Assembly (NCBI GenBank): GCA_049366795.1
Contig: JBMNCP010000053.1
Location: 9,675 to 73,674, forward strand
Source of the DNA: Desulfobacterales bacterium
Lineage (GTDB): Bacteria > Desulfobacterota > Desulfobacteria > Desulfobacterales > UBA5852
Reading direction: 5' to 3'
Length of the DNA: 64,000 nt
The notes below the pieces were generated by a model, which searched no databases, had not been told where the DNA came from, and saw nothing but the letters and a program-made list of their open reading frames with translations. A program made the translations under genes and the position numbers. Position 1 is the first letter of the stretch. Each line of letters starts with the position of its first letter. Shown one piece after another: positions 14,648 through 35,601 of this stretch.

Positions 14648-14650
14648 CAA

Positions 14651-15643: not shown

Positions 15644-16689
15644 ACCGCAGCAAATCACCTTCCGCATCCTCAGGTCTATCGCCGGTATTCATTGCCTCCA
15701 GCGGTAGGGGCGGTTCGACGTGGGTTCTGGATATGCTTGCGGATGCAAACAACATGCGTACGGTATTCGAACCTCTTGAACCTGAAAAGGTAAAGGGTGC
15801 TGCACCGTATTCTTTTGCCTACGTGCGTGAATGCGAAAACCGCGTTGATTTGAAAAGATTTCTGCAAGACACAATTTACGGCAATCATGGGCGGCTTTGG
15901 ACTCGGTACCGCATCGATCGCAGAAACCTCTGGCTTGGGAAATCAAACTTCAATTCGGCAAAACATTTGAAATTCCAATTTGCCAAACACATCCAGATTG
16001 GTAGAAGGCTGGTGAGATACCGACATCAGAATCCAGATGCGAAACCTATGGTCAAATTTATCCGGGCGAATCTGATGATAGGCTGGTTGCATAAAACATT
16101 TAATGCACCCGTTCTTCTTCTGCTTCGCCACCCTGGGGCCGTTGTTGAGTCCAAGCTTCGTTTATGGGAGGGGGGGTGGCGGTTTGAGACCACTTTGAAA
16201 AATTTTTTTTCCAATCGTGCTTTGCGTGAAGATTACCTTAACGATTTAGACATCCCTCACCTTTCTACGATGAGCCGCGCGGAAGGCTTCGCCACCATGT
16301 GGTGCATCGAAAATATGGTTGCCCTTGACCATGCCAACAGACACGGTTTGTGCGTCACTTTTTATGAGAAACTTCTTGACGATGCAAGGGAATGGGATCG
16401 GGTGACATCTGAACTCGGACTCCAGCACTCGCCTGTAGACGCTTGCTTAAAGAAGCCTTCCCAACAAGCTTCCGTCGAAAAAGGTCAAACCGAGTATTAC
16501 ACCGGACTTAAAAATAAATGGATGAGTAGGCTCAACAAAAAAGAGATTAGAGAAATCGATCGGCTTCTGCACCGATTCGGAGTCGGTTTCTATTCAATGA
16601 ATGATCCCGAACCCAAAGCAGTTCAATTCTTACATCCAACTACTTTTCGGCTGCCTCACCGGCCGTACTTCCACAAACAGCCATGTTAG
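15640..16689 (+). CDS. Sulfotransferase
   Basis: SSGRGGSTW, FEP, LLRHPGAVVES, FYEKL. Confidence 0.8.
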   Translation: MNRSKSPSASSGLSPVFIASSGRGGSTWVLDMLADANNMRTVFEPLEPEKVKGAAPYSFAYVRECENRVDLKRFLQDTIYGNHGRLWTRYRIDRRNLWLGKSNFNSAKHLKFQFAKHIQIGRRLVRYRHQNPDAKPMVKFIRANLMIGWLHKTFNAPVLLLLRHPGAVVESKLRLWEGGWRFETTLKNFFSNRALREDYLNDLDIPHLSTMSRAEGFATMWCIENMVALDHANRHGLCVTFYEKLLDDAREWDRVTSELGLQHSPVDACLKKPSQQASVEKGQTEYYTGLKNKWMSRLNKKEIREIDRLLHRFGVGFYSMNDPEPKAVQFLHPTTFRLPHRPYFHKQPC

Positions 16690-18074
16690 ACCTAAGCACT
16701 CTCCAATACGTCCAAATTACAGCCGCACTCCTTGCAGCACAGTTGGTATTCATTCTTGGTTATATTTATCCAAGATTAATGGTTGGATTTCTTATCGTTA
16801 CCCTTCCTTTTCAAGTTGTAGACAGTCAGTATGGTTCGATCAATGTCGCGCTTATTTATATGACGACTCTTAGTGCGTTTGTCAGTCGGAAGATCAGCAT
16901 CAGACAAGCTCCTTTGATGTTTCCCGTCATTCTGGCGCTATGGTTGGTGACGTTGGTCTATATTGTGGCTCTATTTAACAATCCGACGCCAATGCTCGTT
17001 CACAAGGTTACCTATTTAATCGGGTTTTTTTCCAATGTAGCGCTTCTATTCCTCATTTATGCCACTATCAACACGGAATCCGATATCCATCACTTCCTAA
17101 AGCTCCTTCTGATCGTCAACATTCTCATTTTAGGGTACTGTACAATTCAGTTTTTTGCAGGATTCAAAGGTGTGGTTCCTTTCGGTATAAAGGAATTCGC
17201 CTTTATTGAGAACAGGCTGCATGAAGGCATTGACGAGCGCCGGTTGATGGGTCCATTTCTTGGCGCAGGCCTCCTCGCCGAATATTTCGCCTTGATGCAA
17301 TTCATCCATGGCTACACACTTTTCACCACTGGACGCAGGAAGATTGTCACAATACTTGTGATGTTCGGAAATTTTTGCGCCATGGTCGGCACCGGCAATC
17401 GTGGAGCGCCGATCGCCCTGACCATCGGTTGCCTCATCTGCTTGTATGTATTTCGGAAAACTCTTAGTTTTAATAAAGTATTTAAAATATCGAGCTTTGG
17501 AATCGGTTTGCTGTTGGTAGCCAGTTTCCTGATGATCAATTTCACACAGTTTAACGTATTGTATAGGCGGTTTGTGAATACTGAAATTCACGGAATCACT
17601 CCGGACACTAGAGGAGGTTGGCCCGAATATATAAAAAAAGGAATGGAGGCCCCCTTACTCGGGCGCGGGGGTGTGCGGATGGTACTTCCATCGGACCTCT
17701 ATTCCTCCAGCGGTCAGAGACGACCCGGAATCCCATTGAATGAGGCGATGGCCTACCCACACAGCCTTTACATTTACGTTTTTTATACCTTGGGAATATT
17801 CGGCCTTGCCGTCTATTCTCTGCTGGTCATAACCCTTTATTACTTTTTTTTCCAGGTAGGAAAATGGCAAGCCAATAATCGTTTTCTTCATGGACTTCCA
17901 AAACTTGCCACTGTGTTGCTTACCGTCTTTTTAATAGACCAATTCAAACTCGAATTCCTGAGACACAACTACGTGGATTATCAGAACATCATTTTTTCTA
18001 TTTTTGGAATGTTTTTGGCCTATCCCAAAGTGATAAACAACGGCGCATACACACACGACAAAAATGGTAGCTAA
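16683..18074 (+). CDS. Wzy-like polymerase / O-antigen ligase family protein
   Basis: Multi-TM protein; RLMGPF, TGNRG, PLLGRG and PHSLYIYVFYTLGIFG (O-antigen ligase family His motif). Confidence 0.8.
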   Translation: MLDLSTLQYVQITAALLAAQLVFILGYIYPRLMVGFLIVTLPFQVVDSQYGSINVALIYMTTLSAFVSRKISIRQAPLMFPVILALWLVTLVYIVALFNNPTPMLVHKVTYLIGFFSNVALLFLIYATINTESDIHHFLKLLLIVNILILGYCTIQFFAGFKGVVPFGIKEFAFIENRLHEGIDERRLMGPFLGAGLLAEYFALMQFIHGYTLFTTGRRKIVTILVMFGNFCAMVGTGNRGAPIALTIGCLICLYVFRKTLSFNKVFKISSFGIGLLLVASFLMINFTQFNVLYRRFVNTEIHGITPDTRGGWPEYIKKGMEAPLLGRGGVRMVLPSDLYSSSGQRRPGIPLNEAMAYPHSLYIYVFYTLGIFGLAVYSLLVITLYYFFFQVGKWQANNRFLHGLPKLATVLLTVFLIDQFKLEFLRHNYVDYQNIIFSIFGMFLAYPKVINNGAYTHDKNGS

Positions 18075-18116
18075 ATAGATAGTGTTACATCATTCTGTCA
18101 ACTCGAGTTCGATGCG

Positions 18117-20339
18117 ATGAGAAAACACCTTGAAACCGGATTCCGGCTCTTGAATTTGCGCCTGCTGCTGTCGGCGGCTGTCATATCATTCGCCGCTCCA
18201 AGCGCAGACAGCGCGCAATTTTTCCCGAATGGTGACTTTGAAATCGGAAATGTCCACCTGGAGATAGCGCGCACCCCTCGCTACGGAGGCCCGGAAATTA
18301 TTTCTTCCGCCATCGACTCCGAAGGAAGAATTGACGGACGCAATTCCCTCCATCTGCCTGCAGGTGCCGGATCGGCCTACAGGCTGATAACCTATGGCGT
18401 CATGCTGAAGGGAAACGGGGAATATACAGCTTCCTTCAAGCTGCTGACGCCTGACATGTGCAACGCGCGCGTGGAAGTGTTCACTCAGAGAAAAATTGTT
18501 ACACGGATTGCAGAAAGAACCTGGCGATATGCAAAAGGTCAGCACAAGATTTCATTCCGGTTCGCCTCCGGTTCAACTGGCGGCCTGCACTGGCTTCGTA
18601 TCATTCTGGAACCTCGAAATGGGGCATGGATCGATTCATTGAGCCTCGAGGGGCCGCCAGGATCTGGCGGTACGCCGCCTCCCCTGGGTATTTCGATAGA
18701 ATCCGAAAGCCCAACAGGGATATACCGGGTGGGGGAACCGGGCCGCATGACAGCCCGCGTCCTGAGCGACACGGAATTTCCGGTGACGTACCAGATCGAG
18801 GCCCTACCCTCTGGAGAAGTTCTGTCGAACAGGGAGACGACTGTCGACAAGAACGGCATCGCCAAACTGCAGCTCGATACCCATCGACCGGGATATTTTA
18901 GACTCGAAGCGAGGCATGGCTCCGAAATGACAACCAGAGCCTATGCGGTACTCGCTCCCTTGCCGAAAGGGCAGGCCTCCGACCCTCGCTTCGGTGTGTG
19001 CATGGAAGAACACCCTGGAAAGACCTACATTCACGACGCCATGCGGCCAAAGGATCTGTATGCCATGGCACGCGACATTGGCGCCGGCAGTGTGAGGTTT
19101 TTCTCCCTTGCTTCTCCGGAGAAACTCTCCAAGGATGGAAAGCAATTTGACTTCAGTGAACTCGACGCCGCGTTGGCCATGGCGGAAGCCTACGGCCTCG
19201 AAGCCATGCTCCCGCTCGGCTCCAACTTCCCGATAGAGGCTCCCGGGTGGCTCCGAACCACAAAGGCCAGTGGCAACGTGGACCTGATCGGAGGCGGTCG
19301 CACTCAGCAACTCAAGCTGCTTGCCGAACGGCATGGGGGTAAAAGATATCTCGACGTGGCTGCTTACGGCACGTATCTGGAAAAACTGATGAACCACACC
19401 CGAGGTAAAGTCGACCATTTCGAAATTTGGAACGAGCCGGGTCACAAATTCAGCATCGAGGACAGCTTGAAAATTGCCCGGGCCGCGAATATCGCCCGCG
19501 ACAAAGCCCACCCCGGTGCAAGGATTTTAGGTTATTCGAGCACCAAAGGCAGAGGCAGCGGTCAGGGGATGGACCCCAAAAAGGATCCCGCCTTTCTGCA
19601 AGCGATTGCCGAAAGAGGTGGGCTCGAGTACGTGGATATCCTCTCATATCATAGCGGACATGCATTCCAATTCATGGGCAGCGGCTTCGACACGCGAAAC
19701 CAGCAGACGGGCTATGTGGCGAGACTCAAAAGGATAACCCAACGCCAGGGAAAGACGGAAATGCCAATCTGGGACACGGAGCGGGGGATCCCATGGAAGA
19801 GCGGAATGCCGATCTCTTCCGATTCCGTAGCGTCCGAAGATAATGATGTCGACATAGCAAGAACACTGCCCATGCTCGACGCCGCCAGACAGTTGCCCAT
19901 GGTTTATGCTTCGGGGTTCGCAGATGGCGTCGAACGGATCTACTGGTTTCTTCTCGACACATCCGTTGGCCAAATTTACAAGCCGCAAATGCGCTGGGTC
20001 ATGCACGACGTGAATGGCGAACCCGCGGCCATGATCCCGGTCTACAGCGCCATGACGAAGATGCTGCACGGCGCTATGTTCCATGAAGCATTGGAGAGAC
20101 GCGACGGGACCAGAGCGTATATTTTCGCCCGCGGAGAAGACACGGTCATTCTCGCTTACAACTGGATTGAAAAAAAGGCGAATCTGATTGTTCAAACCGG
20201 AGCGGTTGAAGGTACCATACACGACATTTATGGCAACAGGGTCTCATCATACGCCTCCGGAACCGATCTCATGCTCGATGGATGGCCCGTATATGTCGTT
20301 TTTAAGGGAAATCCCCCCGAGATGTTGACAGTGAAATGA
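18117..20339 (+). CDS. Secreted clan GH-A glycoside hydrolase (GH39/GH5-like) with N-terminal CBM-like region
   Basis: Signal peptide; PNGDFE; FEIWNEP (acid/base), SYH, PIWDTE (nucleophile). Confidence 0.72.
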   Translation: MRKHLETGFRLLNLRLLLSAAVISFAAPSADSAQFFPNGDFEIGNVHLEIARTPRYGGPEIISSAIDSEGRIDGRNSLHLPAGAGSAYRLITYGVMLKGNGEYTASFKLLTPDMCNARVEVFTQRKIVTRIAERTWRYAKGQHKISFRFASGSTGGLHWLRIILEPRNGAWIDSLSLEGPPGSGGTPPPLGISIESESPTGIYRVGEPGRMTARVLSDTEFPVTYQIEALPSGEVLSNRETTVDKNGIAKLQLDTHRPGYFRLEARHGSEMTTRAYAVLAPLPKGQASDPRFGVCMEEHPGKTYIHDAMRPKDLYAMARDIGAGSVRFFSLASPEKLSKDGKQFDFSELDAALAMAEAYGLEAMLPLGSNFPIEAPGWLRTTKASGNVDLIGGGRTQQLKLLAERHGGKRYLDVAAYGTYLEKLMNHTRGKVDHFEIWNEPGHKFSIEDSLKIARAANIARDKAHPGARILGYSSTKGRGSGQGMDPKKDPAFLQAIAERGGLEYVDILSYHSGHAFQFMGSGFDTRNQQTGYVARLKRITQRQGKTEMPIWDTERGIPWKSGMPISSDSVASEDNDVDIARTLPMLDAARQLPMVYASGFADGVERIYWFLLDTSVGQIYKPQMRWVMHDVNGEPAAMIPVYSAMTKMLHGAMFHEALERRDGTRAYIFARGEDTVILAYNWIEKKANLIVQTGAVEGTIHDIYGNRVSSYASGTDLMLDGWPVYVVFKGNPPEMLTVK

Positions 20340-20427
20340 GATTTCACGGCCGCATCATCGACTTCAATCAGCTGAACAATTGTGAAACCTGTCATGGCTT
20401 CACAAGGGAAGCGACCCCACCATTCGA

Positions 20428-21543
20428 ATGAGAAAACGTATTTGCTTTATCGGGATGGACAACTACCCGATCATGAACCCCGACTACAAAACCATGTACA
20501 TCGGGGGTGAATCGGTTCAGCAGTCGCTCATCGCCAGGGCTTTTGCGGCGCGCGGTTGGGAAGTGACCATGATCGTCAAGGACCACGGGCAGCCTGACGG
20601 CGAGGTCATCGACGGGGTCAGAATCCTCAAAGCCTATCGGCCAGACGCCGGAATGCCGGTGTTGCGCTTCATCCACCCCAAAGTCACATCGATCAACCGT
20701 TGCCTGGTCCGGGCGAACGCCGACATCTATTACCACTCCTGTGCAGGGTTCATCACCGGCCTGGCAACGAATCACTGCCGTCGGCACGGCAAACGATTGG
20801 TTTTCCGCATCGCTCACGACAGCGACTGCATCCCGGGCAAGCAAATCATTCCCACCTTCCGGGATCGAAAGATTTTTGAATACGGGCTGAGACGTGCCGA
20901 TATGATCTACGCTCAGAGCAGTACCCAGATGAAACTGCTCCGCGAAAATTACCGGCTCCGTTCGGTATTCATGCCAATGGCTGTTGAATTACCGGAAACG
21001 GCTGAATCGGACACAAAAGATATCGACGTCCTGTGGGTGAACAACATTCGCCGATTCAAGCGCCCAGAACTGTTTATAGAACTGTCAAAGCAGCTTCCGA
21101 GCCATAGGTTCGTCATGATCGGAGGGCCAATTTGGGGAATGGAAACATACTACGCGAAGATCGAGAACGAGGCTAATCGAATCGACAACCTCGAATTCAA
21201 GGGTTTCGTTCCGTATGCTTCGGTAAACAGGTATTTCGCCAGAAGCAAAATATTTGTCAATACTTCCGATAGCGAAGGGTTCCCCAATTCATATCTGCAA
21301 GCCTGGATACGAGGTGTGCCTGTCATTTCGTTTTTCGACCCTGACAGGCTGATCACAACCCAAGGATTGGGAGCCGCTACACGTGATCTGCATGAGATGC
21401 GCGTGATGGTGGAACATTTGCTGAATTCGGTAGAGGCGCGATCGAAATTGTCCGAACGCGTTCGAAAATACGCTCTAACGAATCACATCCCGGGCTCTGT
21501 TGCAAAAAAGTACGAAGAATCTTTTTTCGCCATGAATCAGTGA
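20428..21543 (+). CDS. GT4 glycosyltransferase
   Basis: IGGES, KRPE, FVNTSDSEGFPNSYLQAW..GVPVI. Confidence 0.88.
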   Translation: MRKRICFIGMDNYPIMNPDYKTMYIGGESVQQSLIARAFAARGWEVTMIVKDHGQPDGEVIDGVRILKAYRPDAGMPVLRFIHPKVTSINRCLVRANADIYYHSCAGFITGLATNHCRRHGKRLVFRIAHDSDCIPGKQIIPTFRDRKIFEYGLRRADMIYAQSSTQMKLLRENYRLRSVFMPMAVELPETAESDTKDIDVLWVNNIRRFKRPELFIELSKQLPSHRFVMIGGPIWGMETYYAKIENEANRIDNLEFKGFVPYASVNRYFARSKIFVNTSDSEGFPNSYLQAWIRGVPVISFFDPDRLITTQGLGAATRDLHEMRVMVEHLLNSVEARSKLSERVRKYALTNHIPGSVAKKYEESFFAMNQ

Positions 21544-22676
21544 AATTGGATGGATCATTGAAAGCACTTTTCGTGGTACCGTCTCTAAAACGCGCTGGAG
21601 CGGAGAGCCAAGTCGTATCATTGGTGAATGCTTTGGACGCCGAGAACTTCGACCCGCACGTCTTCATTTTTGACAGGCAATTGGATCTCAAGCAGAGCTT
21701 GGACCATTCCAAGGTCCGGCTGCACCAGGCACGCAAGAAATCAAAGATTGATCTCACCCTAGTCCGAACCCTTGCCGACCTGATCGAGAGGGAGAAGATC
21801 GACGTCGTGTACGCGGTCATGCAATACTCCTATCTCTATGCATGGCTCGCTGTTCACCGAGTGCGAAGGAAACCCGGCCTGGTGGCGGCTCTGCATACCA
21901 CGCTCAATCTCGGACGAAAGGAAGAACTGCAGGACAGACTGCTTTACCGCTTCGTCCTGCAAGGAGCCGACAAGCTGATCTTTGTCTGCAATTCTCAAAA
22001 AAATCATTGGCTCCGTCGTTATCCTAAATTGGAGCCACTTGCGGTCACGGTATATAACGGGATCGATTCGACTTATTTCGATCCTGATTTGTATTCCAAT
22101 CCGTCCGGAATTCGACATGAATACGGACTGGCCGATGACGATTTCATCTTCTGTTGCATTGCCGGATTTAGACCGGAGAAAGGGCATAAAATCCTCCTTC
22201 ACGCCTTCTCCATCCTGGGTGGTCGCACAAAATTGATACTTGTCGGTGACGGAGCGCTAAGGACGGAAATTGCAGATGAAATTGAAAGACTCGGCCTGTC
22301 TCGCCGGATTCGATGCACTGGAGTCCTGCAGGACGTGCGACCGATTCTCGCCATATCTCATGCATCGGTTTTGGCCTCAACGGCGGTTGAAACATTTTCC
22401 ATGGCCATGCTTGAGTCCATGTCCATGGGCGTTCCGGTCATCGCAACCAACATCGGGGGATTGAAGGAAGCAATCATTCCAGGAGAAAACGGGATGCTTG
22501 TTCCACCAGGCGATCCAGTGGCGCTTTGCCGGGCGATGCAAGAAGCGGCGGAAAACCGAGAACGTTTTGCCGCCTATGGCATCAGGGCGCGGCAATTGGT
22601 CATTGCGAATTTTTCTGTGAATGCGATGGCAAGAGCAACCGAAACCATTCTCCATGAGGTGGCGTCCAGCAGATGA
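21540..22676 (+). CDS. GT4 glycosyltransferase
   Basis: AGAE, YNGID, EKGH, ETFSMAMLESMSMGVPVIATNIGG. Confidence 0.9.
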   Translation: MKLDGSLKALFVVPSLKRAGAESQVVSLVNALDAENFDPHVFIFDRQLDLKQSLDHSKVRLHQARKKSKIDLTLVRTLADLIEREKIDVVYAVMQYSYLYAWLAVHRVRRKPGLVAALHTTLNLGRKEELQDRLLYRFVLQGADKLIFVCNSQKNHWLRRYPKLEPLAVTVYNGIDSTYFDPDLYSNPSGIRHEYGLADDDFIFCCIAGFRPEKGHKILLHAFSILGGRTKLILVGDGALRTEIADEIERLGLSRRIRCTGVLQDVRPILAISHASVLASTAVETFSMAMLESMSMGVPVIATNIGGLKEAIIPGENGMLVPPGDPVALCRAMQEAAENRERFAAYGIRARQLVIANFSVNAMARATETILHEVASSR

Positions 22677-23578
22677 AAACCCGGAGTAATTTTCCAATTT
22701 TTTTTATTGGTATGCCACGCAGCGGCACGACAATCGTTTTCGAGGCTTTCGCTCGACATCCGGACTTGGGTTGGCTAACGAACTATTCAGATGCTCATCC
22801 TAATTTGGCCGCTCTGAATGCCATACGCTGGTTACAGGAAAATCGTCTCCTAAAAATCGAAGGAAAAAAAACGCCTCGAATTCATAAAATTGGAAACCGA
22901 TTTTTAATCAGACCCGACGAAGCCTATGGTTTTTGGGAGACACACGTTGGCAGAGATTTTTCCTTCGACTTCATGGCCGGACACCAGGCTGACCAGGAAA
23001 CAGCCGCGCGCGTACGCACGGCAATTTTGGACATTGTCCGATATCAGGGTCGAAGTAGATTTTCGACCAAACTGACCGGGCCGCCCCGAATTTCATTTTT
23101 GACGAGCATTTTTCCGGATGCCCGATTCGTCCACGTGGTTCGAGATGGAAGAGCGGTGACGCACTCCCTGCTGAAGGTTCCTTTCTGGAAGCAAAAGGGA
23201 GGTTTCGATGGGCCTTTCTGGAAAGGCCTTCCTCATGAATATGAACAGATCTGGGAAAAGGACAGGGATCCCGGCATCATTACAGCTCTGCAATGGCGTT
23301 ATGTGCTTGAACTCACGGACAAGGAGCGCAAGGGCATCTGCAGCAGCCAGTACATGGAGGTCAAATACGAAGATTTTGTTGAGAAACCGCACGATAGTCT
23401 GAACAGGCTGTTCAGATTCTGCGTACTGAAAAATTCAGCCAATCCTCATCATTACATCGACAGTACAAGAAAACTCGAGAACATGAACTACAAGTATCGC
23501 ACTGATTGGAGCGTCGAGTACATCAGGAAACTCACCGATTGTATGGAACCGATCCTGTCCACGCGCGGCTATTCGTGA
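22673..23578 (+). CDS. Sulfotransferase
   Basis: GMPRSGTT, FPDARFVHVVRDGRAV..S, VKYEDFV. Confidence 0.88.
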   Translation: MKTRSNFPIFFIGMPRSGTTIVFEAFARHPDLGWLTNYSDAHPNLAALNAIRWLQENRLLKIEGKKTPRIHKIGNRFLIRPDEAYGFWETHVGRDFSFDFMAGHQADQETAARVRTAILDIVRYQGRSRFSTKLTGPPRISFLTSIFPDARFVHVVRDGRAVTHSLLKVPFWKQKGGFDGPFWKGLPHEYEQIWEKDRDPGIITALQWRYVLELTDKERKGICSSQYMEVKYEDFVEKPHDSLNRLFRFCVLKNSANPHHYIDSTRKLENMNYKYRTDWSVEYIRKLTDCMEPILSTRGYS

Positions 23579-23910: not shown

Positions 23911-23973
23911 TCAAACCGTCGTCCAACGGAAACAACGACCGTTTTCATGAAACACAGAGTGAACGGAGAAGGG

Positions 23974-25209
23974 ATGAAATCGATGATGCAAATCAATCGG
24001 CGAAAATTCTTGAAGTACTGTATCGGCTCGGCCGCATCGCTGGGGCTTCCCCTGTCGGTGGTCGGCAAACTTGAAAGTGCCCTGGCCGCCGACGGCGCAG
24101 GATTGCCGACGGTGGTGTGGCTGGCGGCCTCCAACTGCACGGGATGCACCGTCTCCCTGGCCAACCGCTTCGACGGCGAAGGGCCCAGGGATATCGCCGA
24201 TCTTCTGACCGGCACCATCAACCTGGCCTACCATCCGAATCTCATGGGGGCGGCGGGCGACCTGGCGGTGCAACAGCTTCGGGACGTCACCGCCGGCGCC
24301 TTCATCCTGGTGGTCGAAGGAGGAATCCCCACGGCATTCGACGGCTATGCCTGCATGCTGTGGACGGCAAACGGGCATGACGTGACGGCGAAGGCCGCGG
24401 TGCAGGAACTTTCCCGGAAGGCTGCCGGGGTCCTGTGCGTCGGCACCTGCTCCAGCTACGGAGGAATGCCGTCCGCCAGTCCGAACCCTACGGGAATCGT
24501 CAGCGTGTCGGAGCTGACCGGGCTTCGTACCGTGAACATTCCGGGATGCCCGACCCATCCGGACTGGATCGTCTGGACGGTTGCGAGCCTCCTGGCCGGC
24601 GAAATGCCCGACCTCGACGAAGCATCGCGTCCCCGGGCGCTGTTCGACCGGAAGATCCACGATGTCTGTTTCCGCAAAGGCCGGGGAGAGGCCAAGCAGT
24701 TCGGAGACCCGGTCAGATGTCTGAAGGAACTCGGCTGCAAGGGGCCGAAGACCAAGGCCGACTGTCCCGCCCGGAAGTGGAACAGCGGCAGCAACTGGTG
24801 CCTGGGCGCCGGCTCTATCTGTATCGGGTGCACCGAATCGAATTTTCCGGACGAATTCTCGCCGTTTTACAAAGTCGAATATCCCTACCATGTCTATGAG
24901 AAGCAGAGCGAGCCGCCCGGAGGGGATCCCCCGGATGAGGAGCCGCCCGTGCAGGACCCTGTTTCCCGGCTTTCGATTCGAAGCGCCGAGTGGCGGCGGA
25001 AGAACGATGAGCTCCGGGTGGAAGGCGACAGCGACGCCGGCGCGCTGGTCACCGTCAGCAACGCGGAGACCGGAATCGTCCACGGGGTCGTTTCGGCTGA
25101 GAACGACGGGCGGTGGCGTGTGCGGGTCAGGAACGTCAAACCGGCCCCGTCCAGGATCCGGGCCACCTCGGGAAAGCTCAGCCGGGAGAGCGATGTCACA
25201 CGCAGGTAG
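23974..25209 (+). CDS. Tat-exported [NiFe]-hydrogenase small subunit with extra C-terminal beta-rich domain
   Basis: NRRKFLK Tat motif; CTGC, GTCSSYGG, PGCP, HDVC, CLKELGCKGP, DCP, WCLGAGSICIGC; then a Pro/acidic linker and ~80 aa extra domain; no TM anchor. Confidence 0.92.
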   Translation: MKSMMQINRRKFLKYCIGSAASLGLPLSVVGKLESALAADGAGLPTVVWLAASNCTGCTVSLANRFDGEGPRDIADLLTGTINLAYHPNLMGAAGDLAVQQLRDVTAGAFILVVEGGIPTAFDGYACMLWTANGHDVTAKAAVQELSRKAAGVLCVGTCSSYGGMPSASPNPTGIVSVSELTGLRTVNIPGCPTHPDWIVWTVASLLAGEMPDLDEASRPRALFDRKIHDVCFRKGRGEAKQFGDPVRCLKELGCKGPKTKADCPARKWNSGSNWCLGAGSICIGCTESNFPDEFSPFYKVEYPYHVYEKQSEPPGGDPPDEEPPVQDPVSRLSIRSAEWRRKNDELRVEGDSDAGALVTVSNAETGIVHGVVSAENDGRWRVRVRNVKPAPSRIRATSGKLSRESDVTRR

Positions 25210-25343: not shown

Positions 25344-26777
25344 ATGAAAACCGTTAAGATCATGGATCCGGTAACCCGAATCGAGGGGCACCTGAAGGTT
25401 GAAGTCACCATCGATTCGATCAACGGCGTCCAACAGGTGGTGGATGCCCATTGCACCGGCACCCTGTTCAGAGGCTTCGAAACCCTCTTGAAGGGCCGCA
25501 AGCCGATCGATGCCACCGTCATCACCCAGCGGATTTGCGGCGTCTGCCCGATATCCCACGGACAGACCTCGGTGCTGGCCCTGGAAAGCGTGTCGGAGTG
25601 GAAAGCTCCCGCCGGCGCCCGACTGCTTCGCAACCTGACCCTGGGCGCGAATTTTCTCCAGTCCCACATTCTGCACTTCTATCTGCTGGCAGCCCTCGAT
25701 TATGCCGAAGGTCCCGCGGCCTCGCCATGGGCTCCGGCATGGAACGTGGACATGAGACCGGGCGCCGGGTCCGCGATGGAGCACCTGGCGAACGCCATCG
25801 AGGCGCGCCGGCGTGCCCACGATCTCGGTGCCGCGTTGGGGGGGCGCATGCCGACCTCCCACGCATTCGTGCCGGGCGGATTCAGCCAGATGCCGTCCGA
25901 CGATCAGATCCGGACGGCAAAAGCGCATCTGGAATGGCTCCTGGGATTTATCCGCAACACCTACATCCCGGATGTGGAGACGGTTGCCCACATTTATACA
26001 GACTATGGAAGCGTCGGCCGGGGATGCGGCAACCTGTTCGCCTTCGGCGTATTCGAAATGGACGATGATTACGCCACCAGGCTTTTCGAGCCCGGCTACG
26101 TCCAGAATGGCGGCAGCGTGGTCCGCTCCTCCATTCAGACCCGGTCGATTACGGAGGCCGTCAAGCACTCCTGGTACCAGGACGAAACCGGCGGCCTCAC
26201 ACCGGATTGGGGCGAAACCCGGCCCCTGTACCCCAAACCCGGCGCCTATTCCTGGCTCAAGGCGCCCCGCCTCTTCGACCAGCCTTTCGAGGCCGGCCCT
26301 CTCGCACGCATGCGGGTCAACGGCGACTACACCGGCGGCATTTCCGTCATGGACCGCCACCTTGCAAGGGCGTACGAGACCCTGAAAATCGCCGAGGCCA
26401 TGTCCGCCTGGTTCTTCGAACTGGGCGGAAGTGCCTACGACACCGCCTATGAACAGTATGCGGGGGTCGGGGTGGGCCTCTCGGAGGCGCCGCGCGGCGC
26501 CCTCGGCCACTGGGTCGAAATCCGCGAAAAGGAGATCGCCAACTACCAGATCATCACGCCTACCTGCTGGAACGCCTCTCCGCGGGACGACAAGGATGTT
26601 CCCGGCCCCATGGAACAGGCGCTGATCGGGACTCCGATCGAAGACCGGGACCAGCCGCTCGAAGTCCTCAGGGTGATCCACTCCTTCGACCCGTGCCTGT
26701 CGTGCGCCGTGCACATGATTCGCCCGGATCGGAAGCCCGTGGTGGTCCACGGCGGAGCCGGCCGATGCACACCCTGA
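25344..26777 (+). CDS. [NiFe]-hydrogenase large subunit (group 1, 1a-like)
   Basis: DPVTRIEGH, L1 QRICGVCPISH, EAPRGALGHW, PTCWN, L2 SFDPCLSCAVH, then a cleavable C-terminal tail. Confidence 0.93.
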   Translation: MKTVKIMDPVTRIEGHLKVEVTIDSINGVQQVVDAHCTGTLFRGFETLLKGRKPIDATVITQRICGVCPISHGQTSVLALESVSEWKAPAGARLLRNLTLGANFLQSHILHFYLLAALDYAEGPAASPWAPAWNVDMRPGAGSAMEHLANAIEARRRAHDLGAALGGRMPTSHAFVPGGFSQMPSDDQIRTAKAHLEWLLGFIRNTYIPDVETVAHIYTDYGSVGRGCGNLFAFGVFEMDDDYATRLFEPGYVQNGGSVVRSSIQTRSITEAVKHSWYQDETGGLTPDWGETRPLYPKPGAYSWLKAPRLFDQPFEAGPLARMRVNGDYTGGISVMDRHLARAYETLKIAEAMSAWFFELGGSAYDTAYEQYAGVGVGLSEAPRGALGHWVEIREKEIANYQIITPTCWNASPRDDKDVPGPMEQALIGTPIEDRDQPLEVLRVIHSFDPCLSCAVHMIRPDRKPVVVHGGAGRCTP

Positions 26778-27226
26778 TCATCGGGCTGGGCAACGAACTC
26801 CTGGGAGACGAGGGCGTGGGCGTCCACGCGGTCCGCGCCCTCGAACCCGGCTCGCTTCCGGCCGGGACCGCGGTTCTCGAGGTGGGAACGGCCATCCTCG
26901 ACGCCGTGGACGCCCTGACCGCACCGGAACGCATCATCGTCATCGATGCCATGAAAGCCGGAGGGCGGTCCGGGACCGTCTATCGGATACCGCTTTCCGA
27001 CTGCGGCGGGCAACCCTGCATCGCGTCCATGCACGGGTTCGACATCTTCCGGGTCCTGGCCCTTGCCGGAAGAACCGACATTCCGGAGATCATCGTCTTC
27101 GGCGTGGAACCGCATTCCATCGCTTGGTCGATGGCCCTTTCCCATCAGGTTCAGGAAGCCATTCCGCAGCTGCTGGAGGCCGTCCGGTCGGAAACCGTGG
27201 AGTCGATCCAAATGTCTATGACGTAG
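26765..27226 (+). CDS. Hydrogenase maturation protease (HyaD/HupD family)
   Basis: IIGLGNELLGDEGVG, VIDA, SMHG, FGVEP; start reset to ATG 26765. Confidence 0.9.
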   Translation: MHTLIIGLGNELLGDEGVGVHAVRALEPGSLPAGTAVLEVGTAILDAVDALTAPERIIVIDAMKAGGRSGTVYRIPLSDCGGQPCIASMHGFDIFRVLALAGRTDIPEIIVFGVEPHSIAWSMALSHQVQEAIPQLLEAVRSETVESIQMSMT

Positions 27227-27598: not shown

Positions 27599-27870
27599 GT
27601 GAGCCTTCCCATCTCAAAAGGTTGATGATGGATACCCCTGCTTCTGCCGAGGAGGCATTGTGTGGGCGACCGCCTTGTCCGCGTCCGATGCGTGCGGAAA
27701 GCACGGATCGAGTCCGCCGAGCTTGCCGGGAGGAGGTCCAAGGACGGGCAGCCCCTGCCGTCATTCAGTGATAGTGTCTTGATATCAACTCAGGTGGGAA
27801 TCGCAACCTGGAAAGAATAGGGCTTGATTGGGGTAGATTTTACCATATTATGGGTTTGCTGTCGCAAAGG

Positions 27871-28911
27871 CTAACCCTGACGTCCATAATAGCCATAATA
27901 GCGGTCCGTAGAGGTCGAATACTTTCGGCCGTTGATGACAAAGCCCAGGAATTTGTTCCTGGGGATGAGCTCGATGGAGCGTTCGACCTCGGCGATGGTG
28001 GTTATTCCCTCCCGCACCACCATGACGATACCGTCCACATTGGGAGCGAAGGCCATGGCATCCGTGGCTTCGAGCAGGGGCGGAAGATCGAAGATAATGA
28101 AACGCTCCTCGTAGCGGCTTTTCATATCGCGAACCAGGTCGGCCATGCGCCTGGACTCCAGCAATTCCGTGCTGTCCTGGATGGTTCGTCCCCCGGATAT
28201 GATGGTGAGCTTCTCGATGCCGGGCCACACGATAAGTTCGTTCATGGGCTTGTCGAACAGAAGAAATTCGACAAGCCCCGCCTCGCTCTCATAACCCAGG
28301 ATTTTGTGGATGGACTGCTTTTTCAGGTCGCAATCCACGAGAATGGCGGTGTGATTGTATTCCCGGGCAAAGGTCAGGGCCAGGTTGACGGCCGTCGTTG
28401 TCTTCCCCTCTCCGGAGCGTGGACTGGTGACCATGAGCGTGCTCCAGCCCCGGTCCCGCATGGCGTGAAGGATCTGGGTGCGCAGCATCCGGAAATGCTC
28501 CGCTTCCTGCCGCTCTGAAAACATGCAGATACAGCGATTGTTCTCGAGAATGGACGGGTCGAGCACTACCTTCCGGGATGTGCCGTAATCGGGCGAGAAC
28601 CAGCCGGCATTTTTCCCGGCCGGCATGTTCCCGGACCCTTGAACGCCTTTCGAAGGAACGCCCTCATCCGGTCTTTTCCTCAGCGGGGCTGCCGGGGTTC
28701 GATCCGGCCTGGAACCCGCAGGAGGCGACGACGATGCGCCGGTTTCACGACGGCCGGGCGCATGTGCTGAAGCCGCGAATGCATTCCCTTCCCCGCCTTG
28801 TTTTTTCATATCCCCTGTCATCCTCGAAATTTTGTCCGGTGTCTTGTTCAACGTATCATCCTCTGGTGGGTCCTGTGGGGTTGCTTCGGGGTATCGTAAC
28901 GTTTTCGTCAA
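27871..28911 (-). CDS. BY-kinase (CpsD/CapB, Wzc-type tyrosine kinase); start uncertain
   Basis: EHFRMLRT, Walker A SPRSGEGKTT, LVDCDL, IFDLPP, C-terminal Tyr cluster RYYGYYG. Confidence 0.88.
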   Translation of the reverse strand: MTKTLRYPEATPQDPPEDDTLNKTPDKISRMTGDMKKQGGEGNAFAASAHAPGRRETGASSSPPAGSRPDRTPAAPLRKRPDEGVPSKGVQGSGNMPAGKNAGWFSPDYGTSRKVVLDPSILENNRCICMFSERQEAEHFRMLRTQILHAMRDRGWSTLMVTSPRSGEGKTTTAVNLALTFAREYNHTAILVDCDLKKQSIHKILGYESEAGLVEFLLFDKPMNELIVWPGIEKLTIISGGRTIQDSTELLESRRMADLVRDMKSRYEERFIIFDLPPLLEATDAMAFAPNVDGIVMVVREGITTIAEVERSIELIPRNKFLGFVINGRKYSTSTDRYYGYYGRQG

Positions 28912-29041
28912 ATTTCAGAGGGCTGCCCGAAGCCCGCTGCCGCCGAGTATCCCGGCCCCGCCTCGGGTTCGGCGCGGTCTTCGTTCAAGTCTCTCGGCTG
29001 CTGCGGCGAATGCATCTGCCGGTGTTCGGGCGGCAAACCCT

Positions 29042-30712
29042 TCATAACCCCAATTTCCGTGTCAGCCCGATCCATGCCAGATCGAGATCCATGACGAAGT
29101 AGTGGATTAGCACCGGCACCGCCACGATCACAAGGAGCAGCACGGCGATTCTGAAGTACGTCTTCCGAATGCGGCGCTTCGACTCGTTGGCGGTCATGAT
29201 GACGGGTATGCCCGCGAGAACCGGAAATCCAGTGATCCGCGTCAGATGATCGGGCTTACGGACCGTGTGGTCCGCGTACTCCCTCAGGGCCGCAAAACCG
29301 ACGCCGGCTCCGATTCCCAAAACGAGCCCCAGAAGTACGATGGCGAGGCGGTTCGGTTTGGAAGGTTTTTCCGGCAACCGAGCCGGATCGATCAGGGTGA
29401 ACCGCTCACCCTTCTGCTCCTTCTCGAGACCTTGCGCCACCCGGGCTTCCATCGCCTTCTGGAGCAATTCGTTGTATTTCGCCTGGGTATTGGCGCGATC
29501 CGAAACCAGCAGGTTGAATTCTTCTTCGACCCGAGGGGTCTGGTTGATTCGCCTGCGGTATTCCTCCACTTTTTTCTCCAGATTGGCGATCTGCCGTTCG
29601 ATGGCGTTGATCTCGGCTCGGGTGCCGGACAGTTGGGACGCCAGGGTGACATAGGCCGGATTCTCGGGAACCCGCTTGTCTTCGCTCGATTTGAACGGCG
29701 TCGGATAGGCGGGAAGGTCCAGCTTCGTGCGCAGCCGATCGATCTCCTTCCGGGTCTTGTAGACGTCCGGATAGGCCTCCGAGTACCGGGTGAGCAGGGA
29801 ACCCAGTTCTATCTCGAGTGCTTCGAGCCGCTTCAGGTCTTCATCCTTCTGTTCGATCCAATTCTGGTCCCATTCCCTCGGTGTGATGGCGAGCTGGCTG
29901 GCCAGGTAGCCTTCACGCTCCTTGAGGCTCTGAAGCTGCTCGTTGTAGAGGTCGATGCTTCTCTCGATCCGGTCCAGGGTCTGGACATTGGCGTCCAGGA
30001 GCTCCGGCAGCTCGTTCATGTGCAGGCTCTTGAAATCGGCGATTCCAGCTTCGAGACCGTCCAGCCGCACCCGCAGACGGGAGGCCTCATCTTCCAGGAA
30101 CTGATAGGTTTCAGCGGTCTGGCGCTCCCGCACTCTGAGATTCTCCTCCAGCAGCAGACTCGTCAGCTGGTTGACGACGTTCTGGACGGTTGCCGGCGCC
30201 TCCCTTGCCTCGAAGGACAGGGTGAAGGCGATCGTGGCCTCCTGGGTTTTGCCGGTGCGCCGGTCCATGACGTCGGCGCTGATCGGTTCGAGACTCACCT
30301 CGTCCCGCATCCGCTCGATGATCTCCTCGGTGGTGGCCTTGTCTCTCAGGTGCTGGTAGAGACCGAACCGGTTGATGACCTCCAGCAGGCGCGTCGAACT
30401 CATGATCCGTTGATTGATGACCTGGATGCGCTGTTCGGCGTAGCTGGTGATGGTGGCCGTGACGAATTCCGGCGGGATCTCCTGTTCCTCGATGAGAATC
30501 GTGGCGGTGGATTTGTAGACCGGGGGCAGAAGCAGCGCCACCAGAGTGCACAGGAGGAAAATCAGGGAGGCGGTCAGGATCAGGCTCCACTTCCTTCGAC
30601 GCAAGATGTCCAGGAAATCGGAAGCCGACAGGACTGGCGCCTCCGAGTCACGGGTTTCCCCCGTGTATCGGCCGGCAACAGCGTCTCCGCGTTCTGCAAT
30701 CGGATGGTGCAT
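29042..30712 (-). CDS. Polysaccharide co-polymerase / chain-length determinant (Wzz/GumC type)
   Basis: Two TM helices flanking a coiled coil; LPPVYKSTATILIE, YSEAYPDV, IDPARLPEKPSKPNR. Confidence 0.88.
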   Translation of the reverse strand: MHHPIAERGDAVAGRYTGETRDSEAPVLSASDFLDILRRRKWSLILTASLIFLLCTLVALLLPPVYKSTATILIEEQEIPPEFVTATITSYAEQRIQVINQRIMSSTRLLEVINRFGLYQHLRDKATTEEIIERMRDEVSLEPISADVMDRRTGKTQEATIAFTLSFEAREAPATVQNVVNQLTSLLLEENLRVRERQTAETYQFLEDEASRLRVRLDGLEAGIADFKSLHMNELPELLDANVQTLDRIERSIDLYNEQLQSLKEREGYLASQLAITPREWDQNWIEQKDEDLKRLEALEIELGSLLTRYSEAYPDVYKTRKEIDRLRTKLDLPAYPTPFKSSEDKRVPENPAYVTLASQLSGTRAEINAIERQIANLEKKVEEYRRRINQTPRVEEEFNLLVSDRANTQAKYNELLQKAMEARVAQGLEKEQKGERFTLIDPARLPEKPSKPNRLAIVLLGLVLGIGAGVGFAALREYADHTVRKPDHLTRITGFPVLAGIPVIMTANESKRRIRKTYFRIAVLLLVIVAVPVLIHYFVMDLDLAWIGLTRKLGL

Positions 30713-30736
30713 TTTGGCAATTCTCCCTCTCGTGGA

Positions 30737-32122
30737 TCATTCCCAGAGAACCGGGACATAGCGGAACTCCAGAAAAACCTGGCTTCGTTCCCTGGTGACA
30801 TCCTGTTCCCTGTCATCCTGGTGGGTGTAGCTGTAGGCCGCCTCGAGGAAGAAATCCTCGGTGAAAAAAAACCGCAGCATGGGCCGCACCAGGAAGGTGC
30901 GTTCATCGATTTCAGTGAGCTCGGGGTGATCGGTGGAGGAACGATTGAGGAAATACCGGACGTTCAGTCCCGTCATGAAAGCCCAGTGCCATCTTCGCCG
31001 AATATCGAACTCGGCCTGGGTGCGGTCCACGGTCTGCCCCTGGCCGGCGCCGGCGGCGAGGTCATGGGAAACCGCCAGCTCCCACCGGAAAACGTCCCGC
31101 TCGTCCACCAGGCTGAGCCTGCCGCTGCCGCCCCAGCTGCTGTCGGTTTCGGTTTCGATCGCCGTCAGAATGTTGGGCGGCGGGCCGGGATCTAGCACCG
31201 GCCTGCGGATCTCGAACTCGGAATCCGAGAAACTGGGACCGGCGTCCAGGGAGAGTACGAGCGTTTCCGTCAGATTACGGGTCACTCCCAGGTTGAGAAA
31301 ATAGTAATCCGTGCGGGAGGTTTCATATTCGAAGCGGGCATATCCACCCGTTATCCGCCCGATGGTGGGCTTGGCGAATGCACTGAACTGATGGGCAATG
31401 CCCCCCGATCCGCCCCAGATATCGTAGTCCTCGTCCTCCAGTCCCTGCCGGTAATCGGTCGACTCATGGCTTCCTGAAGCGAATATCTGGGTCTTCTCGG
31501 AGAGCTGATGCAGGAAGCCGCCCCGGTAGCGTTGACGGTCCCTCCGCTCGGTGGCCTGGGAGAGGCCCGTCTCGTCCACGTCACGGTCCGGCCGGTTGTC
31601 GATGTCATAGCTTCCTTCCGCGTCGACGGTAAACCTGGGCGTGAGCCGGTACTTCACACCCGCATCGGCCTTGAAATTGACGTCGTTCAGATCCTCATTG
31701 TCGAAATACCAGAACGGCCTGAACTCGGCTCCCAACTCGGTGGTGAGCCGCTCGGTTTCGCGCTTGAAATCACCGCCAATAATGCCAGTGGTGATGACGT
31801 CGTTTTCTTTGTCCCGCGAGGTGAAGAAGATGTTGTCGTTGTACTCCTCGCGAACCCCCGCTTTCATTCGAAGCGTGGTGCCTGCCGCGGATGACGGCGA
31901 GGGCGGCAGCATCCAGATCACCGATAGAACCACCGCAGCCTGGATCAGGAGCGATTTGACGCCACTGAACCTGGACGCGGAAGATTCCAGCCGAAACGCC
32001 CCCCGGCCGCACTGGACAACCCGTCCGAATCCATTGCACTTCGAGGGGAAAAGGGCTTCGGTGTTTTCATGCCTCGGCCGCGACGGCGACCGCCGATGCA
32101 AGTCCCGATGAATCCCGTCCAT
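30737..32122 (-). CDS. Outer-membrane beta-barrel protein of the EPS/exosortase locus; start uncertain
   Basis: Signal peptide; EEYNDNIF start motif, amphipathic strands, C-terminal VFLEFRY. Confidence 0.75.
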   Translation of the reverse strand: MDGIHRDLHRRSPSRPRHENTEALFPSKCNGFGRVVQCGRGAFRLESSASRFSGVKSLLIQAAVVLSVIWMLPPSPSSAAGTTLRMKAGVREEYNDNIFFTSRDKENDVITTGIIGGDFKRETERLTTELGAEFRPFWYFDNEDLNDVNFKADAGVKYRLTPRFTVDAEGSYDIDNRPDRDVDETGLSQATERRDRQRYRGGFLHQLSEKTQIFASGSHESTDYRQGLEDEDYDIWGGSGGIAHQFSAFAKPTIGRITGGYARFEYETSRTDYYFLNLGVTRNLTETLVLSLDAGPSFSDSEFEIRRPVLDPGPPPNILTAIETETDSSWGGSGRLSLVDERDVFRWELAVSHDLAAGAGQGQTVDRTQAEFDIRRRWHWAFMTGLNVRYFLNRSSTDHPELTEIDERTFLVRPMLRFFFTEDFFLEAAYSYTHQDDREQDVTRERSQVFLEFRYVPVLWE

Positions 32123-32301
32123 CTCTTCTGCCTCCGGCCTCCAACGGCGCACATTGCCCCGCTTGGCATTCAGGTTCCGATTGGCCCAGGCACTGCTTCC
32201 TGCCTCGGACTTTCAGTAGCGATCCGCTTTTCGATGGATACGTTCAATTTCGGCCGATCAAACCGGTGGGCTTCATCGCCCAAGGGCTGCGCTAACGCCC
32301 C

Positions 32302-32883
32302 TCAGGGTATCACGATCACATCCCCCCGATTGAGGCGGATGTTTTTTTCCAATGCCTCCCCTTTCACGATGTCGGAGTATGGAAACTCAAAGATCTCGGT
32401 CTTTCCGTCGGTCTCCCTGATGATCTTGATATCGTCCCTCTTGGCGAATGCATTAGGCCCCCCGGCCATGGCCAGCGCCTGAAGCGCGGTGATATTGCTG
32501 TTCAATACCAACCGCCCCGGCTGATTGGCCCGGCCCACCACATACACCAGCATGCTGTTGACCTGCTGCACGGAAACCGTCAATACGGGATCCGGCACGA
32601 ACGGCTTGATCCGCTCGGCGACCTCGTCCCTCAATTCGGACACGGTGCGGCCGGCGGCCCTGAGTTCCCCGATCAGCGGATAGGAAAGCGTGCCGTCGGG
32701 CAGCACCGGCAAGGTGCGGGTGAGTTCCTCGTCCTTCCAGATGGAGATGCTGAGCACGTCTCCTGGACCGATACGATAAGTATCGGCTGATGATGCATCC
32801 CCCGCCGTGGTCGCCGCGGCAGCGGCGAGGACCATCGCCGTCGCGATCAACGAGATCGAGAAAATAAAAGCGAAGTGGCGCAT
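32302..32883 (-). CDS. wza: Polysaccharide export protein (Poly_export + SLBB)
   Basis: YRIGPGDVL, VLPDGTLSYPLIG, VYVVGRANQPG, ALAMAGG, LNRGDVIVIP. Confidence 0.85.
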   Translation of the reverse strand: MRHFAFIFSISLIATAMVLAAAAATTAGDASSADTYRIGPGDVLSISIWKDEELTRTLPVLPDGTLSYPLIGELRAAGRTVSELRDEVAERIKPFVPDPVLTVSVQQVNSMLVYVVGRANQPGRLVLNSNITALQALAMAGGPNAFAKRDDIKIIRETDGKTEIFEFPYSDIVKGEALEKNIRLNRGDVIVIP

Positions 32884-35468: not shown

Positions 35469-35601
35469 GAAAACTCCTTTGCGGTTCGGTGGACGGGATA
35501 CCTGCGAAATCACAACACCGGAAAGCGCTGCGCCACCGTTGCTCTGAACCAGCGCCGGCCGGATTCCCATGAACGTGTTCGCCTCGGTTTCTGCCGGCAG
35601 G

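Follow-up and report, generated by a model that had tools for sequence, protein, structure and literature searches.

An Ig-Like Domain Shared by a [NiFe] Hydrogenase Small Subunit and an OTR-Like Multiheme Cytochrome: A Possible Co-Localising Tether

Introduction

Soluble periplasmic hydrogenases are thought to feed freely diffusing cytochromes c3, and membrane-bound group 1 enzymes deliver their electrons to a cytochrome b partner by way of a membrane anchor at the C-terminus of the small subunit. In solved structures the small-subunit C-terminus lies beside the distal Fe-S cluster, the electron exit of the enzyme. The physiological donors of OTR-type reductases are poorly known. Here we describe a 64,000-nucleotide stretch of a Desulfobacterales genome (the window, meaning the whole stretch of DNA analysed), in which a [NiFe] hydrogenase small subunit ends in an immunoglobulin (Ig)-like domain, termed IgA, and an OTR-like multiheme cytochrome encoded 38 kb away starts, in its mature form, with a second copy of this domain. 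An earlier reading of the window (the original prediction) had proposed that the two domains are homologous and act as a tag that brings hydrogenase and cytochrome together. We find that the homology is real, that the genome holds just these two copies, and that hydrogenases and OTR-like cytochromes of other genomes share a second, unrelated Ig module (IgB), a comparison that points to a possible role of such domains as co-localising tethers.

Among described enzymes, Desulfovibrio vulgaris and Desulfomicrobium baculatum have the closest, periplasmic [NiFeSe] and [NiFe] hydrogenases (2wpn, 3ze6, 1cc1 and 4kl8) that are the best solved matches for both subunits. The enzyme of the window shares with these a twin-arginine (Tat) signal, a short large subunit of ~480 residues, the lack of an anchor helix and of an operon-encoded cytochrome b, and the cassette of small subunit, large subunit and maturation protease. 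The [NiFeSe] enzymes have selenocysteine at the active site and a small subunit that ends at the equivalent of residue 309, whereas the window's enzyme has cysteine there and its small subunit continues into a linker and an Ig domain.

Results

Translation of the window returned both segments exactly as originally read, and BLASTP aligns the hydrogenase copy of IgA (24970-25197, + strand) with the cytochrome copy (62735-62962, + strand) without gaps, with 28 identities (37%) and 42 positives over 76 residues (53.9 bits, E 1e-16), which bears out the homology claimed between small-subunit tail and cytochrome N-terminus. The pair has a Smith-Waterman score of 136; shuffling the second segment (n = 2000) gave scores of 24.8 ± 4.6 with a maximum of 48, and since none of the 2000 shuffles reached the observed score (z = 24), the alignment also withstands the shuffled control suggested for it. 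With the hydrogenase copy as query, 11 other copies rank above the cytochrome copy in BLAST score, and with the cytochrome copy as query 8 others rank above the hydrogenase copy, while a poorly resolved domain tree of 116 copies does not join the two. A recent duplication within the genome is rejected as the source of both copies because they are nearest neighbours neither by BLAST rank nor in the tree, and since they are not each other's closest kin IgA is not a private tag. A complex prediction in which both window domains were supplied as alignments gave a score of 0.00 and no answer, and counts neither for nor against binding.

Four models, namely a two-sequence hidden Markov model (HMM; 64,069 frames), Pfam Big_6, a 23-sequence A2 profile and a 95-copy HMM, agree that the 4.79 Mb, 97%-complete genome of the window (G000) contains exactly two copies of IgA, one on the hydrogenase and one on the cytochrome. 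Among 30 relatives there was one match, the orthologous small subunit of a same-genus genome (G002, 70% complete), which is 65% identical and has a longer acidic Ser/Gly/Asp linker; in another genome of the genus (G001, 96% complete) there is only a small-subunit paralogue, 41% identical and without tail. Given this patchy occurrence in kin, the small-subunit and cytochrome genes are both accessory.

Some of the related hydrogenase loci (n = 38 in all, one genome per species scanned, mostly metagenome-assembled genomes (MAGs) titled Desulfobulbales, Desulforhopalus, Desulfopila or Desulfobulbaceae) place the two protein families side by side. An OTR-like cytochrome gene, its product 33-38% identical to the window's over ~510 residues, lies directly upstream of the small-subunit gene and on the same strand in 5/38 loci; it is intact in L022 and L030, is split over several frames in L029 and L043, and has in L040 an intact heme core with the tail in a separate frame. 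A tree built from 12 OTR-like sequences places the cytochrome of the window, with 100% support, in one clade with those of L030, L040 and L022 and with P0096, a library protein, and leaves the two other OTR paralogues of the genome outside this clade. The closest OTR-like relatives in kin genomes (L051 and L052) belong to the same clade, and no hydrogenase was found within the 18 kb and 5.9 kb examined there.

The cytochrome of L030 has a Pfam Cytochrome_cB core and ends in IgB and an ASH/HYDIN-like Ig domain. Between its IgB and the tail of the neighbouring small subunit 63 of 86 positions are identical (73%, E 2e-41), and IgB is likewise present in the upstream frames of L029, L040 and L043 and in that of L027, which a contig end cuts. 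The module, modelled as an all-beta domain (pLDDT 96.4), was searched for in the window's genome and is absent from it; that IgA and IgB form one family is rejected on an hhalign probability of 0.08%. When five IgB-tailed genomes were searched whole, four (G045, G047, G049 and G048, the upstream frame of the last stopping at a contig end with the heme part unseen) had IgB on the small subunit and on the upstream frame and nowhere else, and the fifth, G046, had it on the small subunit only. Matched pairs, with the same module on both proteins and nowhere else, are thus found in G000 for IgA and in G045, G047, G049 and the truncated G048 for IgB, and are not found in 9/16 genomes with IgA-tailed small subunits or in G046. 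As IgB is unrelated in sequence to IgA yet occurs in the same layout, a genome-restricted Ig module shared between hydrogenase and OTR-like cytochrome has, judged from sequence, arisen with two unrelated modules.

The upstream cytochrome of L022 (L022:630-2900) is OTR/MtrC-like, has 12 CXXCH motifs, adjoins an IgA-tailed small subunit, and carries an unassigned beta-rich N-terminal domain and, after it, a poly-Pro linker. This N-terminal domain was considered as a further IgA copy and rejected (hhalign probability 0.7%).

AlphaFold2, given an alignment of 23 sequences, models IgA as the beta-sandwich that had been foreseen for it, with seven strands (pLDDT 97.6, pTM 0.85). The structure search that the original prediction had called for, run with Foldseek against the PDB, agrees with an Ig-like fold and yields nothing at E <= 1e-3: the rows are generic Ig-like domains only (best TM 0.63-0.70, 2yn3), among them SiiE adhesin repeats, alpha-2-macroglobulin MG domains, gingipain and S-layer Ig domains and a glucan-binding domain. 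The nearest Pfam family, Big_6 (PF17936, cut-off 27.6 bits), scores the hydrogenase and cytochrome copies below its cut-off (21.6 and 20.4 bits; 20.4 and 19.4 bits for the window copies in the whole-genome scan), and multi-copy relatives pass it (P0008, 47.4; P0120, 58.9; P0047, 51.9 bits). The identification of the domain is firm: by these models the 76-residue segment is a free-standing Ig-like sandwich of a Big_6-like bacterial Ig family.

A word-indexed protein search with the tail matched the window protein alone and was blind to the cytochrome copy, and was replaced by a HMMER search of 1.84 billion representative proteins with a profile of the two window copies. This gave 932 matches at E <= 1e-3, of which 224 reach E <= 1e-10, giant repeat adhesins matching only the middle of the profile (positions ~17-51). 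Local re-scoring of the best 150 of the 932 matches left 144 at E <= 1e-3 and 43 with at least one near-full-length copy. Among these 43 carriers are four [NiFe] small subunits with 1-4 C-terminal copies each, two multiheme cytochromes with two N-terminal copies (P0096 being OTR-like), and 11 secreted proteins in which a conserved N-terminal single-CXXCH module is followed by PKD and/or MopE-type repeats. Redox-type hosts thus make up 17/43 near-full-length carriers in the best-150 set, a share that is inflated because the profile was built from two redox copies and favours redox kin in the ranking. The domain is not peculiar to the redox pair: IgA is, as far as sequence searches tell, a widespread extracytoplasmic module whose closest members include a noticeable proportion of redox hosts.

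Sixteen genomes with an IgA-tailed small subunit, the window's included, were then searched whole for further carriers. An OTR-like carrier occurs in the window's own genome only (1/16). In five genomes the only other strong carriers are one or two secreted monoheme proteins, which have a signal peptide and a single CXXCH near the N-terminus, then MopE-type Cys repeats, a C-terminal IgA and a charged tail, and in three of these five the monoheme-carrier gene lies ~2.2 kb downstream of the small-subunit gene.

Two further features of the monoheme proteins are recorded here. In four of these five genomes a Lys/Arg/Asp/His-rich tail of 11-50 residues follows the Ig domain on both the small subunit and the monoheme protein (small subunits of L015, L020, L023 and L025; monoheme proteins beside L020, L023 and L025 and, in the L015 genome, at L061 and L063). 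Among the outgroup operons, whose small subunits have no tail, L036, L038, L039, L042 and L045 encode a related protein immediately after the hydrogenase genes, with an N-terminal single CXXCH, 3-6 tandem IgB domains and an acidic tail; it is split over several frames in L039, and the two such proteins scanned, those of L042 and L045, have no match to a Pfam cytochrome family. The two kinds of monoheme head, IgA-type and IgB-type, are only marginally similar (E 0.001).

The features of the hydrogenase and cytochrome genes are collected in Table 1.

Table 1. Coordinates of the hydrogenase and cytochrome features in the window and of the IgB-repeat proteins in related loci
Feature	Position	Strand	Remarks
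[NiFe] hydrogenase small subunit gene	23947-25209	+	420 aa; database form begins at residue 13, window 23983
Twin-arginine motif NRRKFLK of Tat signal peptide	23992-24012	+	Read from translation
Linker, from core end (...FSPFY) to Ig domain	24874-24969	+	Conserved KVEYPYHVYEK, then Pro/Asp/Glu-rich part
Ig-like domain IgA, C-terminal copy on small subunit	24970-25197	+	Translation, BLASTP, AlphaFold2
[NiFe] hydrogenase large subunit	25344-26777	+	Pfam NiFeSe_Hases, E 1.3e-110; C-terminal DPCLSCAVH
Hydrogenase maturation protease	26693-27226	+	Pfam HycI, E 1.7e-15; start codon uncertain; overlaps end of large-subunit gene
Signal peptide of cytochrome (...IPALAHSA/LSV...)	62624-62734	+	Cleavage site inferred from sequence
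Ig-like domain IgA, N-terminal copy on mature cytochrome	62735-62962	+	Translation, BLASTP
Pro/Thr linker, then OTR-like multiheme core	62963-64000	+	Gene runs ~474 bases past window
Downstream single-CXXCH IgB-repeat proteins	L042:8380-10476, L045:6853-8772, L036:8880-10187, L038:8960-10255, L039:8975-10554		

The small subunit is composed of Oxidored_q6 (Pfam E 5.5e-23) and NiFe_hyd_SSU_C (E 3.9e-23), followed by the PPGGDPPDEEPP linker and the Ig domain, three residues after which it stops; the linker, measurable in 13 orthologues, has 22-41 residues in these and is rich in Pro, Glu and Asp. The subunit passes TIGR00391 (213.8 bits, cut-off 179.5) and stays below the cut-off of TIGR01409 (14.5 bits against 16.7), and its top solved match is the [NiFeSe] small subunit 2wpn_A (E 1.4e-66). 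The top solved matches of the large subunit are likewise [NiFeSe] enzymes (4kl8/1cc1, E about 1e-111, more exactly 1.1e-111). An [NiFeSe] enzyme proper is ruled out by the Cys at the motif, the lack of an in-frame TGA, and an NF045520 score of 269.9 bits against a cut-off of 470. The Tat signal, the Fe-S domains and the C-terminal DPCxxC motif of the large subunit are features of group 1 periplasmic [NiFe] hydrogenases, and by these sequence marks the enzyme is a Tat-exported, Cys-type relative of the periplasmic [NiFeSe] enzymes; 'group 1a' would be its HydDB label. The three genes of the cassette are the only ones kept in common with related loci, the maturation protease standing beside the small- and large-subunit genes in 36/38.

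No hydrophobic window or membrane-anchor helix was found in the small subunit, and no cytochrome gene in the three-gene cassette. The absence of a cytochrome partner from the operon, stressed in the original prediction, is thus correct and at the same time ordinary for periplasmic hydrogenases of this kind; with 12 class-III cytochrome c matches elsewhere in the genome it is not in itself unusual. The statement that characterised small subunits and OTRs lack an extra domain is upheld: solved small subunits align to residues 14-309 only of the window's subunit, and 1sp3 to residues 143-570 only of the cytochrome, so that neither alignment includes an Ig segment and neither solved relative has the extra domain.

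The cytochrome, whose full-length form (617 residues, L001:2299-4152) was fetched from the genome, has 10 CXXCH motifs, the first at residue 149, and is hence a decaheme protein by motif count and not the octaheme protein it had been called. Its residues 143-570 align with positions 16-435 of 1sp3_A (E 2.5e-62), the only solved match, over the whole heme core, and Pfam recognises Cytochrome_cB, Cytochrome_C7 and Cytochrom_c3_2. TIGR04315 gave 212.8 bits for the in-window part, below the cut-off of 375. No close orthologue was found in the relatives searched, the best being 38% identical with a match that begins near residue 140. One of the OTR-like paralogues of this genome (G000:C108:47900-49120) has one in-frame TGA, as have its homologues in nine related genomes, and may, going by weak NCBIfam matches, be a selenocysteine cytochrome of the ExtKL kind.

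Tails are common in the hydrogenase clade to which the small subunit belongs. In a tree of the small-subunit core 30 of the 39 rows form one clade with 100% support, in which tails are common, and the nine outgroup rows are without tail. IgA is found on the small subunit in 15/38 related loci, one of which, titled Acidobacteriota, has four copies, and in 18 rows of the tree; tandem arrays of 2-4 IgA copies occur on the small subunits P0027, P0008, P0120 and L026. IgB tails are present on the small subunits of L027, L029, L030, L031 and L040, and acidic tails on those of L028 and L032. Along the strongly supported branches IgA must have changed state four times or more, which means repeated gain, loss or exchange of tails.

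Other tails in these loci are of different make. That of L033 (L033:6883-7176, a Syntrophobacteraceae MAG) has 98 residues with four CXXCH motifs and matches Pfam Cytochrome_C7 and Paired_CXXCH_1, and that of L035 (L035:6913-6996, Geobacter hydrogenophilus) has 28 residues with one CXXCH; it would be unusual for an Fe-S subunit that is exported by Tat to be fused to heme c. In two loci an extra small-subunit gene (L021:4443-5534 and L037:4781-5569) stands in tandem upstream of the IgA-tailed one and has a tail of ~52 residues (…DGSDGKIGLAEAISALR…), for which Pfam gave nothing at E 0.01 and which is perhaps dockerin- or EF-hand-like; a split small-subunit frame of L037 with a similar tail was, as a fragment, excluded from the tree.

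An exosortase (EpsH) polysaccharide (EPS) locus surrounds the hydrogenase cassette, one half of it at 13016-23578 on the + strand and the other at 27871-41471 on the - strand. The upstream half encodes a flippase (Wzx), two sulfotransferases, glycosyltransferases and a Wzy-like protein, and the downstream half a P-loop ATPase, Wzz/GNVR, a Wza-like exporter, a large TPR protein, a sugar transferase and the exosortase EpsH. As a conserved link this context is ruled out, the flanking open reading frames (ORFs) at 16-36 kb matching 0/38 related loci. Three + strand ORFs downstream of the cassette (27850-28518, 28578-29102 and 29246-31195) were considered as partners and rejected, having no family match, no CXXCH and an unusual composition, and are apparently shadows of the - strand EPS genes at 27871-28911 (P-loop ATPase) and 29042-30712 (Wzz/GNVR). 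On the - strand between 42848 and 56868 lie genes for an S8 subtilase that contains three cadherin-like Ig domains and a MopE motif, a multicopper oxidase that also has cadherin-like domains, two more multicopper-oxidase-like proteins and a 1735-residue SdrD_B-like surface protein, and a PAS sensor kinase gene separates this run of secreted proteins from the cytochrome gene.

Directly downstream of the cytochrome gene, and co-oriented with it, is a complete type II secretion cluster (G000:C53:75397-86570, L001:5398 onward, past the window end) with Pfam matches to T2SSE (GspE), T2SSF (GspF), N_methyl (three pseudopilins), T2SSK (GspK) and PilM/PilN (a PilM/N fusion), and with a secretin on the same strand (C53:86067-86570). 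The cluster was rejected as a conserved neighbour of the hydrogenase, since GspE, GspF, GspK, the PilM/N-like protein and a 185-residue ORF match none of the 38 loci at E 1e-5.

Discussion

The reading that we put forward is that IgA on hydrogenase and cytochrome serves as a co-localising tether, by Ig-Ig contact or by a common anchor. The Pro/acid-rich linker of 22-41 residues joins the Ig domain to the small-subunit C-terminus, and a domain of the same family, with a Pro/Thr linker behind it, forms the mature N-terminus of the OTR-family decaheme cytochrome. The shared module would hold the hydrogenase and its heme-protein acceptor together, through association of the Ig domains with each other or with one common component of envelope or matrix, and the hemes could then take up H2-derived electrons from the distal cluster with no freely diffusing carrier in between. 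Binding by the module, the cytochrome as acceptor and the cellular site are the parts of this scheme that we infer. Its main argument is the independent repeat of the layout with IgB, and with it the original prediction that a shared tag co-localises the two proteins gains comparative support from the IgB operons; it loses ground in that the tag is not special to these two proteins. The monoheme proteins that are the only other strong IgA carriers in five genomes, and the 17 redox-type hosts among the 43 near-full-length carriers, also speak for a tether.

Several observations weigh against such a tether. The window's two copies are not nearest relatives by BLAST rank or tree, they are at 37% identity far below the 73% of the IgB pair, and their genes are 38 kb apart; the cytochrome copy of IgA is found in no relative searched, and the cytochrome adjacent to the hydrogenase in L022 has an N-terminal domain that fails to match IgA. 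Nine of the 16 genomes (G033-G036, G038, G040, G043, G044 and G002) have IgA on the small subunit alone, and a tenth (G031) has only a weak, partial second match, so a partner with a matching tag cannot be a general requirement. The family is common on extracellular proteins outside redox metabolism, and non-redox proteins or fragments make up 26 of the 43 near-full-length carriers. Pfam, run on 20/43, shows FGE-sulfatase, subtilase, Calx-beta, cadherin-like and HYR/PKD proteins among these, and PKD/MopE proteins and giant adhesins are further hosts of the family. The apparent enrichment on redox proteins comes, moreover, from a profile built on two redox copies and from related genomes that are not independent samples. 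Setting the IgB repeat, the OTR genes that neighbour hydrogenases in operons and the modules restricted to pairs against the lone tails, the L022 cytochrome, the 37% identity and the commonness of the family, we regard the tether as evenly poised between being right and being wrong.

The same breadth of the family, with 932 library matches in many host architectures, feeds the alternative that IgA is a generic extracytoplasmic spacer or stabiliser which each protein acquired separately, its presence on both being coincidence and coupling nothing. The two window copies are indeed not sisters, their genes lie far apart, and most genomes with an IgA-tailed hydrogenase have no second carrier. Chance would, however, have had to place just two copies in a genome, both on redox proteins whose families stand side by side in operons of other genomes, and to repeat this with the unrelated IgB, restricted genome-wide to the pair, and we consider coincidence rather unlikely, if the most serious of the competing accounts. 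The lone tails have another possible explanation, in which the tail is self-contained and either ties the enzyme to the envelope or to EPS in place of a membrane anchor or pairs hydrogenase dimers, the cytochrome using its copy separately. Small subunits that are the only IgA carriers (9/16 genomes), those with 2-4 tandem copies, the position of the cassette inside the exosortase/EPS locus in the window, and structural neighbours among adhesin, S-layer and glucan-binding Ig domains all fit this account. It leaves unexplained why the same type of module is found on linked heme proteins, and the EPS flanks that would give it context are not conserved (0/38 loci); we hold it to be distinctly improbable. 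Least credible, and to our minds very improbable, is an export mark, read by the type II secretion system in moving the Tat-exported hydrogenase and the Sec-exported cytochrome to the surface. The cytochrome gene does head a co-oriented cluster of GspE, GspF, three pseudopilins, GspK, a PilM/N-like protein and a secretin, and the other hosts of the domain look extracellular, but five cluster proteins lack a match in all 38 hydrogenase loci at E 1e-5, the module stands at opposite ends of the two proteins (N-terminal in the cytochrome, C-terminal in the small subunit), and type II secretion is not known to use a general sequence signal, which also counts against such a mark.

Returning to the co-localising tether, it can be extended to the whole clade, which would then comprise periplasmic or extracellular [NiFe] hydrogenases of Desulfobacterota and Acidobacteriota wired to OTR-family and secreted monoheme acceptors by interchangeable Ig tethers (IgA, IgB), swapped on both partners together. 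We offer this extension tentatively and think it somewhat more apt to fail than to hold. If true, it would amount to a cellulosome-like modular assembly of extracytoplasmic electron-transfer pairs that needs neither membrane anchor nor diffusible carrier. Ig-tailed subunits that match modules on multiheme cytochromes would then be a third solution to the electron exit of hydrogenases, a direct link from hydrogenase to an OTR-type reductase would become testable, and natural, portable tether domains would be at hand for building hydrogenase-cytochrome assemblies. The wider pattern, with IgA, IgB and c-type heme tails and a further, perhaps dockerin-like one in a single clade, marks the C-terminus of the small subunit as a hot spot for new electron-exit designs.

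Comparison with Known Systems

OTR of Shewanella oneidensis (1sp3) has eight hemes, and the window's cytochrome has 10 CXXCH motifs, an additional C-terminal Cytochrom_c3_2 part and the N-terminal Ig domain and linker. The Lys aligned to position 56 of the 1sp3 chain, the presumed site of the unusual heme ligand of that enzyme, is kept in the window's cytochrome. The Big_6 family and the SiiE BIg repeats (2yn3) are the best Pfam and Foldseek likenesses of IgA, and differ from it in forming long repeat arrays in adhesins, whereas in the window a redox enzyme carries one lone unit of the domain. Cohesin and dockerin of cellulosomes are small modules on flexible linkers that gather enzymes outside the cytoplasm, and offer a works-like analogy only, as there is no sequence relation and both partners here bear the same module; the IgB-tailed genomes, with IgB at just two places, yielded no scaffold protein.

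An extracellular [NiFe] hydrogenase, of Tat type and proposed to act outside the cell, has been described from Methanococcus maripaludis OS7 (PMC6181927); it is archaeal, and its abstract mentions neither an Ig tail nor a cytochrome partner. Neither Ig-tailed small subunits nor operons that join a hydrogenase to an OTR turned up in searches of full-text literature, with subscription journals and supplements outside their scope, or in passages of PMC12142623 and PMC8528874. The parts (group 1 hydrogenase, OTR-type cytochrome and Ig domain) are known; what appears to be new is the way they are combined and the recurrence of matched pairs. A functional analogue is the membrane anchor of membrane-bound group 1 hydrogenases, which is likewise attached at the small-subunit C-terminus and holds the enzyme beside its heme acceptor, cytochrome b. 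There the appendage is a transmembrane helix, whereas in the window it is a soluble Ig domain on a flexible linker, with c-type heme proteins as candidate partners.

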